Positions 23,194 to 26,911 of a stretch of 64,000 nt of DNA are shown piece after piece (the first letter of the stretch is position 1; each line of letters opens with the position of its first letter). Under the pieces are notes generated by a model, which did no database searches, had not been told where the DNA came from, and saw only the letters and a list, made by a program, of their open reading frames with translations. The DNA is taken from the NCBI GenBank assembly GCA_040437565.1, contig JBDOQK010000001.1, positions 744,001 to 808,000 of the forward strand, written 5' to 3'. This DNA is from Albugo candida. Lineage: Eukaryota. Made by a program: the position numbers and the translations under genes.

Positions 23194-26100
23194 TCATCGT
23201 TTAGGTTTTCTACCCCGTTTGGATCGAATTTCTGCATTCCGCTTATCTTTCTTCATGCGCGGATCCACAATTTTCACACGTCCACCTTTTGAATTTGTAT
23301 TTTTGGCATTTGATGTTCGACCACCACGTCGGGACACGACATAAACCTTATTTTCTTTCTTCAGCTGTGCTTTCTTCATAGTTTTCTCAATAGCTTTCAG
23401 TTTTTCACGTGTGGGAAGATCTGGTTGATTTGCAATCTCAGACGATTTCCGTTTCGCTATTTGAATTTTTTTCAATTGCTGTCGTTTCTTCCGTTGTCTC
23501 GCTTCAGCGACTTTCTTGACTGGCTTTGATGCGATTTCGAGGAATCGCTGGCGCATTTGCTGCATAAGTTTGGGAGGAATAGGCAATTGAGGTCGATAAT
23601 GCTTCTCTTCGTCGTCTAGAAACCAAGAGGGCAAAGCTTTTGGGTCATTCCACCCGTAACGATTATAGCTCGAATCGATAATTTCTTTGGCTTTAGAGCG
23701 TTTGATCATCATAGTTGCCAGCGCAAGCGTTTTTGCCCTATCTTCGGTGTCGTAGAGTTCAGTATCCGAGTCGTAACGACGATCATCAATGACGTCCAGA
23801 CCACATTCATCCGATTCAGGAGCTTTCACAACTTCAAACGACGATGTCCCACCTTCAACGCTCGTGGAGTTGTCTGTCAACGCTGCTCCCATTCCAGACC
23901 GGATAAGCTCACGTTTTTCGGTGATTTCTTCGTCCTCACAGTCAGAAGAATCAAATTCCTCTTGATCTACTGCGGGTAAGGCAACGTCGACCAATGTATC
24001 TTCAAATTCTTCAGATTTCAGTTTCTTCTTCTCACGACGAGTTTTTCGCTCAGCTGCAGCCTTTCGTTTCTCCTTTCGAAGAATTTTGTCGGATTTCGGC
24101 ATTGAAGGGAGTGTGGAATTAGTGTCCAAAGCGCCTTCGAACAGTTTGTTACCGGAAAACCAACGAGAGACGACAGCTTTATCTGTGTGGAGTTCTGGAA
24201 ATCGCAAATTCACAGCCAATTGCTTTTTCGGAGAATCTTCATCGTCATCCGAGCTCTAAAGCAACATCAAATTAGAATCGATGGAAAAGTATAACAGGTA
24301 TTCTATGTTGAAAGACAAGAGGACAGGGAGCTGATGTAAAACAGCTGCCTGTCAGACATCCTTGCTTCCTTTCAATTTTCCCCATTTTTGACAACTGAAT
24401 TGAGTACGGAAAATTCTCAAAACAGACAACACTGAATGGGGATTCAGTCAAACACAAATTCGAGCGCGTGCTCACCTCTTCGGGATTGATCATTGTCTGA
24501 TACGTATCGATGTCTCCATCATACATAGCTGAATCTTGTGTCAAAGCCTCACCAGCCAGTGCTCGTTTAGCAATCTTAGTACGTTTCTTCATGTTTGCTG
24601 TCTTTGAAGCATCTCCTCGCCGAGATAAAAATTGGTCGTACATGGAATCCATTTGGGTATCTAAAAGCTCATCATACTCATCTTCGTCACAATCGGTGTT
24701 GTCCTCGGTCGGATTCTCGTCTTCACTCCCGTTTTCTGGAACAGCATTCTCAAGATCATCGACATTGTTTTTCGAGAGACCAAGCTTTGAGAGACTGAAT
24801 ACAGACTCCGATTCAGTGACATCGATTCCTTCTTCATTCATTCCCAAAGCGGCTCGCACTCGAAGTTTTCGTTTTTTCTCCCGATCCTATGAACTGAATG
24901 GTTAACAAAATGAGACAGCTATAAAGACGACAGAAACTCAGAGAAGAGGTATGTTTGAGCACATGAACGGTTGGAAATAAGACGGGATACAAATTCCAAC
25001 AGCTGAAGGCTGCAAGCATTTATATAGGCGAGTTCAATGACCGATCTGTTCAAGGATCCGCCTCATGGAGACGCACCTCTGCACGTAAAGCAAAGAGGGC
25101 CTTGGATATCGCCAAATCTAGCTATTTGTATGTACGTTCCCAATCGAACCTGTTCTCATGACAACGTAGTTGCGAGAGCGGGGGATTTAGAGAACTGGAC
25201 TGGTTTTGGCGCTTAACGGGAGTTGAGGAGGGTTAGTCCTGCAACATGTCAATCTGAAATGACAAGAACTACTGGGACACGCCTTGAAGGGATATCGTGC
25301 TCTTCCATTTGAGGTTCTGTCGTCCGTATTTGGTTGCGTACCTTTTTTTTCTCTCGTTTCTTCTTTGCGAGGGTGTTTGCTCTCATTTGGGATAGTTCTT
25401 CTCGGATCATCGTTTCTGAATCAGGTGTTTCGGACGTTGGAGCATCGTCTTTGACATTCTCAACAGATATAGCTCCTGCTGGTTCTTCTTTGGTTGCGGA
25501 TTGTTGAAGTAATTTTTGATATCCGATCATTTTCAGTCTCCACTTTAGCAAATGCTTAAAGTCTGCTTTCCCTAGGACCTTATACATAAAACGTCAGAAA
25601 TGGACATGAAATAACAGGAAATGAGAATAATCAGACAGAGCCGCAGAATGCGTCAGCGCAGCCATTGGCTTCCTGATGGGTTTTCCAGAAATTAATCCGG
25701 CAACAGGAACAACAATGGAGCGAAATCTGATTGTGGGCTCCACTTTCATCCTTTCATTCTTAAATACTGCCGTAAAGGTGAGATTGCTTACCCGAAGATC
25801 CTGCAAACAGGTGACGATTTCTGGTGTCGTGCTTGTGTGTTCTCGATATAACGTATCGCCGTCATTGAAACGAATCGAAGTCGAGTCAGTCAAAAACTGA
25901 ATTGGATCGGAATCATTGATAAATTCCTGAACGCTCTTTTCATTTGTCAGCGTGATTCCTAAAGTTTCGTTGTAGCCTATCGTCCATTTAGAAAATGAGA
26001 TGGGATTCATTAGGAATGAGAATGTCATAAGTCCCTTTGCATCTCCAAAGATGCAAAGCAAAAGCTTTTCTTTCGAGACACAAAGCTTGATAGTTGCTAT

Positions 26101-26911
26101 CGGCTACAAGTAGCACACGTCTTTTACCACACAAAAAGACGAGAGACTCTAGATAGAATGCAGCCAAACAATAGAAAGGGAACTCACCCTCTCTATGACG
26201 CTTTTGAACTCCGAATTTGGGATGGAATATAGTGACCGATTTGTTCTGAGAAGGATCGCCCAATTGCTCAAAGACACATTTCGGGTCGAATAATTTTGGA
26301 TCGATAGTGTGTGGGGCCAAAAAGTGTTCACAGACAACGAAAATTTCTGCAGACTCATTTCTTGACGAAAGTGGTTTGGTGGCGCTCACTTTTTTGAATA
26401 ATTGACGGAAGACCCATAAAAGTGCGTTGTAATCTTGCGATCGAAATACTTTTGATACAAACGTGGCGCCTTGACCCATAACATCTGCGGCCAATTTGAG
26501 CGCGATAAGGGACAATTCGTTTTGCACATACGCATCTTTGGAGTATTCAGCACCAACATTAGGCGCTCCATCACATAATACAACATCCGCTTGCCAATTT
26601 TGCATCTCTTGACGAATTATTTGTCGGCATTTTGAAGTTGTAATATCGCATTGAAATGTCTTCACACCGCGAATTGGACGTATAGGAAGAAGATCGATAC
26701 CAATGATGATACTTGAGGCCGGCATGTACTTTGCAGCAACTTGACACCATCCTCCTGGTGCCGCACACAGATCGATGCATACTTTTGCCGTCGAAAGAAA
26801 GTCGTACTTTTTGTTCAATTGTATCAACTTGAAAGCTGAACGAGCTCGGTATCCTTGCTGGCGTGCTAGCAGATAGTATTTATCCTTATCATGCTTCTTT
26901 CGTTTTACCAT
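23194..26911 (-). CDS. SPB1: SPB1/FTSJ3 pre-rRNA 2'-O-methyltransferase, 5 exons
   Basis: [33 protein letters not shown] and [10 protein letters not shown]-terminal [21 protein letters not shown] and VDPRMKKD. Frame-restoring introns: 25977-26187, 25579-25791, 24887-25341, 24256-24475. Confidence 0.95.
24303..24441 (-). ncRNA. Candidate intronic H/ACA snoRNA (SPB1 intron 4)
   Basis: Hairpin 1 is CCCCAUU/AAUGGGG with UUGAG/CUCAA. Hairpin 2 is UGAAAG/CUUUCA with GACAGG..AGCUG/CAGCU..CCUGUC, then ACA at 24306-24308. The hinge AAAAUU is not a canonical H box. Confidence 0.55.
24949..25113 (-). ncRNA. Candidate H/ACA RNA domain (3' half of SPB1 intron 3)
   Basis: Branched 5' hairpin closed by GGCGA/UCGCC. 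H box AUAUAA (25020-25025). 3' hairpin with upper stem GUUGGAA/UUCCAAC ending 15 nt before ACA (24952-24954). Confidence 0.65.
25128..25321 (-). ncRNA. Structured RNA in the 5' half of SPB1 intron 3 (second H/ACA-like unit, or the 5' domain of a longer RNA)
   Basis: Hairpins GACAGAAC/GUUCUUGUC, GGACU/AGUCC and GUUCUC..AAUC/GAUUGGGAAC, followed by ACAuac. No canonical H box after the first hairpin. Confidence 0.4.
25624..25760 (-). ncRNA. Candidate intronic box C/D snoRNA (SPB1 intron 2)
   Basis: Terminal stem AGAAUGA/UUAUUCU brackets a box C-like AGGAUGA (25746-25752) and box D CUGA (25631-25634). A second internal CUGA and internal hairpins are present. Confidence 0.65.
26020..26165 (-). 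ncRNA. Candidate intronic H/ACA snoRNA (SPB1 intron 1)
   Basis: 5' hairpin with basal stem GGCUGCA/UGUAGCC and upper stem CGUCUUUU/AAAAGACG. H box AUAGCA (26095-26100). 3' stem CUUUGCAUCU/AGAUGCAAAG. ACA at 26023-26025. Confidence 0.65.

Follow-up and report, generated by a model that had tools for sequence, protein, structure and literature searches.

The SPB1 gene of Albugo candida very probably acts as the coding host of several intron-encoded small nucleolar RNAs (snoRNAs), with a single snoRNA in each of introns 1, 2, and 4 and one or more in intron 3. The gene was studied in a stretch of 64,000 nucleotides (nt) of the genome (GenBank assembly GCA_040437565.1, contig JBDOQK010000001.1, positions 744,001 to 808,000 of the forward strand), called the window below, and it encodes an FTSJ3-type ribosomal RNA (rRNA) 2'-O-methyltransferase. 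This reading is based on observed properties of the locus, namely, the coordinates and splicing of the introns, their boxes and hairpins, the conservation of pocket and box segments, and complementarity to stand-in rRNAs. An original prediction, made from the letters of the DNA, had proposed a cluster of four to five guide RNAs inside an rRNA methyltransferase gene. The cluster as such is supported, and two of its pockets fit known conserved pseudouridine sites. With respect to the number, three guides are well supported and one is a candidate, whereas the fifth corresponds to a conserved block that lacks guide features.

The SPB1 gene and the splicing of its introns

The spliced open reading frame (ORF) of SPB1 is uninterrupted and contains the Pfam domains FtsJ (E value of 1.9e-52) and Spb1_C (E value of 5.7e-55). 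The closest full-length protein is CCA23812.1 of Albugo laibachii strain Nc14, which is annotated as an rRNA methyltransferase, and exon 1 shares 87% identity with that of Thraustotheca clavata. Splicing was read from contigs of four public sequencing runs, presumed to be RNA, that were placed on SPB1; gene parts left uncovered in runs X17, X18, and X20 were excluded as evidence, as were contig depths. Contigs of run X15 cross all four introns at the predicted coordinates, and run X17 crosses the 220-nt intron. The gene model and the X15 joints agree exactly with the intron sizes (211, 213, 455, and 220 nt) and the span (24256-26187) that had been proposed originally. Intron 3 is also spanned unspliced by one X15 contig. 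The coordinates of the gene and its features are compiled in Table 1.

TABLE 1 SPB1 of Albugo candida, its exons and introns, and the intronic features discussed in the text (positions in the window)
Feature	Position	Strand	Length	Remarks
SPB1 / FTSJ3-type S-adenosylmethionine (AdoMet)-dependent rRNA 2'-O-methyltransferase gene	23194-26911	minus	872 amino acids (aa)	Five exons
SPB1 exons 1-5	26911-26188, 25976-25792, 25578-25342, 24886-24476, 24255-23194	minus		Spliced translation open
Intron 1	25977-26187	minus	211 nt	GTGAGT..TAG; joint in X15
Intron 2	25579-25791	minus	213 nt	GTAAGC..AAG; joint in X15
Intron 3	24887-25341	minus	455 nt	GTACGC..TAG; joint in X15
Intron 4	24256-24475	minus	220 nt	GTGAGC..TAG; joint in X15 and X17
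Intron 1 H/ACA snoRNA candidate	26020-26165	minus	146 nt	Fold, boxes, tails of relatives
Intron 2 C/D-like candidate	25624-25760	minus	137 nt	Boxes and terminal stem rare in shuffles
Intron 3 conserved block (5' part)	25206-25283	minus	78 nt	Includes UUGACAUGUUGCAGGACUAACCCUCCUC...GCGCCAA; 4/7 relatives' tails
Intron 3 H/ACA snoRNA candidate (3' RNA)	~24949-25113	minus	~165 nt	Fold, boxes, pocket target, one relative
Intron 3 inverted repeat	25300-25324 with 24926-24948	minus	25 nt	84% complementary
Intron 4 H/ACA snoRNA candidate	24303-24441	minus	139 nt	Sub-threshold Rfam match to SNORA13, fold, target, conservation

The introns of SPB1 are longer than the others of the window, a contrast that is real but only partly surveyed. 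The original prediction had put nearly all other introns at about 50 to 65 nt, and this is consistent with the intron of the adjoining gene (49 nt) and with six of the 11 intron candidates (47-326 nt) that were obtained by chaining ORFs over the window, which measure 47 to 69 nt. None of the 11 is backed by RNA, and the chaining heuristic is crude and failed to recover the introns of SPB1 itself, so that the survey of the window is a partial one. The flanking frames and sequences of the four longest candidates, at 39727-40052 (plus strand, 326 nt), 58911-59122 (plus, 212 nt), 42465-42608 (minus, 144 nt), and 38265-38368 (plus, 104 nt), were unconvincing on inspection.

Structure and boxes of the candidate RNAs

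The significance of folding was expressed as a z value against dinucleotide shuffles of each intron (100 or 200 shuffles). As a whole, intron 1 (z of -3.75, 0/200 shuffles as good), intron 4 (-2.90, 0/200), and intron 3 (-2.29, 4/100) were more structured than their shuffles. The claim that all four introns are structured does not extend to intron 2, which as a whole had no significant structure (-0.81, with 38/200 shuffles as good). When the candidate RNAs were folded alone, that of intron 1 was the most stable (-4.49, 0/200 shuffles), followed by those of intron 4 (-3.93, better than 199/200 shuffles), intron 2 (-2.19), and the 3' part of intron 3 (-1.75).

The box types named in the original prediction, i.e., H/ACA-like in introns 1, 3, and 4 and C/D-like in intron 2, were all located again. 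In the three H/ACA-like RNAs the ACA lies 3 nt from the 3' end as predicted (rather than mapped), and H boxes of the type ANANNA are present in introns 1 (AUAGCA) and 3 (AUAUAA). All candidates are sense to SPB1, reside within introns that are spliced in the run contigs, and are set back from both splice sites as had been stated, by at least 22 to 34 nt on the 5' side and by 43 to 62 nt on the 3' side. Their predicted 3' ends precede the 3' splice site by 43 (intron 1), 46 (intron 2), 47 (intron 4), and 62 nt (intron 3), a regular spacing that would fit processing coupled to splicing. The distance from the top of the pocket to the H or ACA box, which in H/ACA RNAs is generally about 14 to 16 nt, is 13 nt for the 5' pocket and 14 nt for the 3' pocket of the intron 4 RNA, 16 nt for the 3' pocket of intron 3, and 17 nt for the 5' pocket of intron 1. 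The minimum-energy fold has no clean pocket in the 3' hairpin of intron 1 or the 5' hairpin of intron 3, and a strict automatic enumerator recovered only part of the pockets, with 0 real target matches versus 0 to 3 in shuffles.

Rfam was run on the window at the curated gathering thresholds and then permissively (the match to intron 4 stems from a search of 2251 nt). Targets were sought in stand-in rRNAs, i.e., eukaryotic rRNA genes (rDNA) that contaminate bacterial assemblies and were typed with Rfam, comprising four small-subunit (SSU) and two full-length large-subunit (LSU) rRNAs.

Predicted guide RNAs in introns 4, 3, and 1

The RNA of intron 4 is likely the functional equivalent of snR35/SNORA13. 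The stem CCCCAUU/AAUGGGG of its 5' hairpin is combined with a pocket formed by the strands GUGUU (24428-24432) and GUCAAA (24387-24392), and the hinge AAAAUU (24374-24379) is followed by the 3' hairpin and an ACA at 24306-24308. SNORA13 was the best permissive Rfam match to the intron (27.8 bits, E value of 0.042) and covered the full length of 1-134; the H/ACA families ceN67, SNORA84, snopsi18S-1377, and snoR134 matched at the same RNA. The 5' pocket strands GUGUUG and UGUCAAAAA coincide with conserved letters of the SNORA13 consensus. When this pocket was held fixed, UUUGAC-UC-AACAC was the top match in 4/4 eukaryotic SSU rRNAs, and the duplex consists of 11 Watson-Crick base pairs (bp) around the unpaired U-C, without any G-U. 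The pocket fits the uridine of 18S helix 31 (yeast 1191, human 1248), and its letters are kept in the tails of 16/17 relatives. The weight of this target derives from the agreement with the SNORA13 alignment. According to the available parts of two modification tables, the helix 31 uridine is the site of snR35 and later becomes m1acp3-pseudouridine 1191 in yeast (PMC5699541, PMC8307265).

SNORA13, also named ACA13 (RF00396), and snR35 share with the intron 4 RNA the two-hairpin H/ACA design of about 135 to 140 nt, the 5' pocket GUGUU(G)/(U)GUCAAA, and the helix 31 target. The differences are a score below the gathering threshold, an imperfect H box, stems and a 3' hairpin that are unrelated in sequence, and the location in SPB1.

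As for the 3' hairpin of the intron 4 RNA (24309-24370), its pocket strand AUGUCUGA is compatible in 61/61 informative cells of the relatives. In the LSU rRNA this pocket matches AGAGG-UG-UCAGA, which corresponds approximately to yeast U2795 beside Gm2791/Gm2793, and 0/40 shuffles reached the score obtained with the stand-in rRNA L117. The available parts of the yeast and human tables do not list this uridine as a pseudouridine, and it may be a lineage-specific site. An assignment to human pseudouridine (Psi) 4373 was dropped, as the offsets of the available table parts equate Psi4373 with yeast 2826.

The second pocket with a known pseudouridine site belongs to the 3' RNA of intron 3. Its 5' hairpin is closed by GGCGA/UCGCC and has an uncertain 5' limit, and the H box (25020-25025) is single-stranded. 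The 3' hairpin consists of a 7-bp lower stem, the pocket UUCAGCU (25001-25007)/CGUUCAU (24963-24969), and a 7-bp upper stem, GUUGGAA/UUCCAAC. The pocket is symmetrical (7 + 7 nt), and the ACA to which its top is spaced stands at 24952-24954. In 2/2 full LSU rRNAs the top match was GAACG-UG-AGCUGGG (score of 28), whose target uridine is located 22 nt (stand-in L113) or 21 nt (stand-in L117) downstream of the G within UUGUUCA, the motif of the A-loop, and is followed by G-A-G-C. The numbering of this uridine as 2944 makes use of the spacing in the stand-in rRNAs and of what we take to be the yeast 25S sequence. In the available parts of the yeast table, Gm2922, which is made by Spb1, is listed together with Psi2944 (guided by snR37), Am2946, and Cm2948 (PMC5699541, PMC8307265). 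The A at +2 and the C at +4 of the intron 3 target fit the spacing of the last three entries, and because spacing and letters match the table, the target is taken to correspond to yeast Psi2944. The intron 3 RNA is predicted to share with snR37 the target uridine 22 nt downstream of the A-loop G, with G-A-G-C following, but it has neither sequence nor Rfam similarity to snR37, and the equivalence is one of target. A match of intron 3 to the C/D family snR64 (15.4 bits) was rejected: its start coincides with the 5' splice site, no C box is present, and CAGA stands where the D box is expected.

The RNA of intron 1 has a 5' hairpin with the lower stem GGCUGCA/UGUAGCC and an 8-bp upper stem, CGUCUUUU/AAAAGACG, followed by the H box at 26095-26100, a long 3' hairpin, and an ACA at 26023-26025. 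Its Rfam matches, snR46 (15 bits) and SNORA69 (13.9 bits), are weak and reflect architecture only.

Conservation in other oomycetes

Relatives were compared by way of prokaryote-style ORF calls that run from SPB1 exons into the following introns. These tails were back-translated to degenerate DNA and aligned with the introns of the window by the Smith-Waterman algorithm, each against shuffles of the intron (15 for introns 1 and 4). For intron 4, 16/17 tails beat all 15 shuffles, and the failing one is a tail of 15 aa; for intron 1, 8/13 were above all shuffles. The 5' block of intron 3 was recovered above all shuffles by 4/7 tails, a fifth from a close relative aligned at intron positions 18-70, and two tails of 18 to 19 aa failed. 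The single tail available for the 3' RNA of intron 3, which is Phytophthora-like, matched intron positions 286-391 with a score of 56.1 versus a shuffle maximum of 23.8. An independent tblastn search gave 15 matches in the correct intron, three in a wrong intron (E values of 0.005 to 0.03), and none on antisense frames.

The conservation in orthologous introns, on which the original prediction had been made to depend, is accordingly found for introns 1, 3, and 4, where it is concentrated on pocket and box segments, but the tail available for intron 2 shows nothing. In intron 4, compatibility amounts to 88 to 100% for pocket and lower-stem segments versus 65 to 76% for the apex, the hinge, and the lower stem of the second hairpin (HP2), and in intron 1 the cells of the 3' pocket strand and lower stem are 94% compatible. 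Across the relatives, the ORFs run through the conserved blocks in each of the three frames, and it is therefore the RNA that is conserved and not a peptide. Over exon 4, two relatives share 84 to 88% identity with SPB1 of Phytophthora palmivora. Since such Phytophthora-like relatives keep the RNAs of introns 3 and 4, these RNAs predate the split of the Albugo-like and Phytophthora-like lineages. A wider scan of metagenomes with an SPB1 alignment gave at least 80 loci with 47 to 67% identity; in 11 of these distant loci, which were chosen by length, Rfam at the gathering threshold had 0 matches.

The pattern of conservation also bears on the idea that the intronic blocks are cis elements for the splicing or expression of SPB1, e.g., for autoregulation by the protein or by preribosomes, and not guides acting in trans. 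This idea could draw on an alternative 60-nt splice that uses an AG inside the intron 4 hairpin, the unspliced contig across intron 3, the 25-nt inverted repeat that pairs the ends of intron 3, and the exon frame that stays open through introns 1, 2, and 4. We nevertheless regard it as quite unlikely: three introns share the order hairpin-hinge-hairpin-ACA, in which the ACA is 3 nt short of where the conserved region stops; in intron 4, the two strands of the pocket agree with the SNORA13 consensus; two of the pockets point to pseudouridine sites that are already known; and conservation is strongest on the pocket strands and not near the splice sites.

Intron 2, the conserved block of intron 3, and the evidence against guide RNAs

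A long box C/D RNA is probably present in intron 2 and is treated here as a candidate. Its 7-bp terminal stem AGAAUGA/UUAUUCU encloses a C-like box, AGGAUGA (25746-25752, one mismatch to RUGAUGA), and the D box CUGA (25631-25634); a possible D' box (CAGA) and a C'-like UGACGC are situated on either side of a 68-nt internal hairpin, and there is no 3'-terminal ACA. Among 2000 mononucleotide shuffles, an arrangement of this kind with a stem of at least 5 bp occurred 10 times and with a stem of at least 7 bp not once. An ORF search with exon 2 plus intron 2 recovered only the protein of the window itself and one relative of 100 aa.

In the 5' part of intron 3, the conserved block of 78 nt lies in a region without significant structure (z of -0.13 for 25111-25283). 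No box arrangement, Rfam match, or rRNA target was found for the block, and its RNAduplex pairing with the rRNAs was no better than that of shuffles. Several interpretations were dropped: a single-hairpin H/ACA RNA ending at the ACA of intron positions 93-95, as conservation is missing from the 5' half of its hairpin; an internal branch point with a 3' splice site (ACUAAC...AAG), as the relatives have UAY-G and hence no AG and the joint was unseen in the contigs; and m1/m2 motifs of the U17/snR30 type, on account of the wrong geometry. A second H/ACA RNA using the ACA at positions 208-214 of the intron was likewise dropped, since it has no lower stem. The inverted repeat of intron 3 pairs intron positions 18-42 with 394-416, and the latter follow directly after the predicted end of the snoRNA. 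Its pairing would place the interior in a loop, draw the 5' splice site toward the branch region, and leave an effective intron of about the usual length.

The following observations speak against guide RNAs in SPB1. The Rfam covariance search that was recommended along with the original prediction brought no candidate to a curated threshold, and no family reached its gathering score anywhere in the window; the intron 4 RNA scores 27.8 bits compared with a gathering score of 53 for SNORA13. The stand-in rRNAs come from unrelated eukaryotes and are not Albugo's own. Neither an unconstrained H/ACA target scan nor a generic antisense search exceeded noise, with matches of at least 12 nt in 90% of shuffles. 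Even with fixed pockets, the score of the intron 4 5' pocket is not significant by itself (8/40 shuffled rRNAs reach it), nor is that of the intron 3 pocket (3/40), and neither pocket of intron 1, whose 3' hairpin folds without an open pocket, has an rRNA target above the null in the stand-in rRNAs. The same holds in these scans for the middle hairpin of intron 3 and the possible 5' hairpin of its 3' RNA. That RNA is weakly structured (z of -1.75), and its 5' hairpin is ill defined and partly absent in the one relative available. In intron 4 the H box is imperfect (AAAAUU), and the perfect AAAGGA 8 nt further on overlaps the next stem. Back-translation leaves third codon positions blank, which precludes a test of base-pair covariation, and the run contigs reveal neither the ends nor the levels of small RNAs nor discrete small products. 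For intron 2, the three candidate guides formed no duplex with the stand-in rRNAs above the shuffle null, and a conservation signal is lacking, the 24-aa tail of the sole relative scoring 13.0 versus a shuffle maximum of 21.4.

It is conceivable, at somewhat short of an even chance, that snoRNAs are real in introns 1, 3, and 4 only and that neither the C/D-like boxes of intron 2 nor the conserved block of intron 3 belongs to a guide RNA; they might, for example, be structures by which a spliceosome used to short introns copes with long ones, or lineage-specific filler. Intron 2 as a whole is no more structured than its shuffles (z of -0.81), it has no target above the null, no relevant Rfam match, and no tail similarity, and its C-like box is mismatched at the second position. 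The intron 3 block is unstructured (z of -0.13) and free of boxes and targets, and stems pairing the ends are present in that intron. On the other hand, the combination of CUGA, a C box mismatched at no more than one position, and a terminal stem in the canonical register was found in 0/2000 shuffles at 7 bp and in 10/2000 at 5 bp, the 137-nt candidate alone has a z of -2.19, and its 46-nt distance to the 3' splice site is like those in introns 1 and 4. Moreover, the tail of the intron 2 relative covers just 72 nt of its intron and is uninformative, and the stand-in rRNAs are blind to targets in variable regions, small nuclear RNAs, and transfer RNAs, so that the candidate may have a lineage-specific target or be an orphan.

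Reading frames through the introns and alternative splicing

The frame of the upstream exon is free of stop codons until intron positions 198, 196, and 202 of introns 1, 2, and 4, respectively, where the first stops fall in the putative branch-point motifs CUAAA, CUGAC, and CUAAU; the other two frames have two to seven stops each. An equally open exon frame occurred in 53, 69, and 37 of 2000 shuffles of these introns, and in 506/2000 for intron 3. The read-through tails of relatives are long, with at least 60 aa in 9/14 cases for intron 1 and 8/17 for intron 4.

In one X15 contig, exon 4 continues from its end directly at position 24415, which defines an alternative 60-nt intron (24416-24475, minus strand). 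Its cryptic AG is located in the apical part of the 5' hairpin of the intron 4 snoRNA. The splice retains 160 nt of intron 4, which would result in a frame shift, and the piece that is skipped has the usual intron size of the genome.

The open frames raise the question of whether the long introns represent insertion remnants, or are partly coding through isoforms that retain them, in which case their snoRNA features would be coincidental. An exon frame of 196 to 202 nt that few shuffles equal, and read-through ORFs called in many relatives, might be taken in this sense. However, neither 211 nor 220 nt, the lengths of introns 1 and 4, is divisible by three, the spliced joints restore the conserved SPB1 frame, the conserved blocks lie in frames that differ between relatives and do not encode a conserved peptide, and there are no further copies of the SPB1 introns within the 64-kb window. 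We consider this explanation very improbable. An exonic or transposable-element origin, which had been named as a way in which the original prediction could fail, is not borne out, since the intervals are spliced out in X15 and single copy in the window.

The open exon frames of introns 1, 2, and 4, the long read-through ORFs of relatives, and the 60-nt splice that cuts the intron 4 snoRNA led us to consider a second, frame-dependent constraint on introns that do carry snoRNAs. Transcripts that are unspliced or alternatively spliced might be translated or shielded from nonsense-mediated decay and be part of a switch that balances Spb1 against guide output. Both the constraint and the switch seem unlikely to us; if true, the switch would couple the enzyme to the guest of intron 3, as the two act 22 nt apart on one segment of the LSU rRNA.

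Predicted processing and targets, and comparison with known host genes

Intronic snoRNAs are released by splicing, debranching of the lariat, and exonucleolytic trimming to a core that is protected by snoRNP (small nucleolar ribonucleoprotein) proteins. By analogy, the SPB1 precursor mRNA would be spliced, the lariats debranched, and the introns trimmed to their snoRNP-protected cores. The small RNAs would then accumulate, assemble into snoRNPs, and direct rRNA modifications. The RNAs of introns 1 and 4 and the 3' RNA of intron 3 would act as box H/ACA guides of pseudouridylation, and intron 2 would probably give rise to a long box C/D RNA. The 5' pocket of intron 4 is predicted to pair with 18S helix 31 (UUUGAC-UC-AACAC) and to select the uridine that becomes m1acp3-pseudouridine (yeast 1191). 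The 3' pocket of intron 3 would pair with GAACG-UG-AGCUGGG and select the LSU uridine equivalent to 2944 of yeast 25S rRNA, 22 nt 3' of the G that is methylated by Spb1.

Several guides per transcription unit are typical of the multi-snoRNA host genes of animals and the intronic snoRNA clusters of plants. SPB1 likewise contains several guides, but mostly one per intron, in a coding host, and in introns of about 210 to 220 nt with RNA ends 43 to 47 nt from the 3' splice site. Conserved snoRNA-bearing introns in ribosome biogenesis genes have been described in fungi, e.g., NOG2 with snR191 and RPL7 with snR59 (available part of PMC8476143), and pseudouridylation guides were predicted by snoGPS in 5' introns of ribosomal protein genes of Phytophthora infestans (available part of PMC4696810). 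As far as these parts go, the fungal and P. infestans cases have in common with SPB1 a ribosome-related host gene with a sense snoRNA inside a spliced intron, as well as an intron position and content that are kept over long evolutionary distances in intron-poor or compact genomes. What differs is that the host is SPB1 and that each of its four introns is occupied by a snoRNA or a candidate. No description of SPB1/FTSJ3 as a snoRNA host in oomycetes was found in the literature, in a search that did not cover supplementary tables. The arrangement is ordinary in kind.

With this locus, three H/ACA guides that have good support and a C/D candidate are available with exact coordinates, including likely equivalents of snR35/SNORA13 and snR37. 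In the literature found, oomycete snoRNAs appear only as the unnamed snoGPS predictions in ribosomal protein genes of P. infestans (PMC4696810, in its available part). The pairing of the host SPB1 with its guests is older than the split of the Albugo-like and Phytophthora-like lineages, and the snoRNA content explains why four long introns are kept in one gene of a compact genome whose introns measure about 50 nt. That the gene for the G2922 methyltransferase carries the guide for the uridine equivalent to yeast 2944 points to a possible coupling, but it may be a coincidence. From a methodological point of view, the intron content of relatives was readable from ORF calls that overrun splice sites, an approach that can be reused.

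Neighboring gene, assembly gaps, and rDNA in prokaryotic assemblies

The gene adjoining SPB1 (21898-23065, minus strand) encodes deoxyhypusine synthase, a name that was given by reading its translation, and its 49-nt intron is located at 22792-22840. The window carries ten scaffold gaps of exactly 100 N each (3203-3302 and nine more). The stand-in contig L113, which is filed under a bacterial metagenome-assembled genome, contains a 5S rRNA gene (1282-1401) directly downstream of the LSU rRNA. Numerous contigs assigned to bacterial or archaeal genomes contain eukaryotic rDNA, and at least 56 stretches in them matched the primer pattern.

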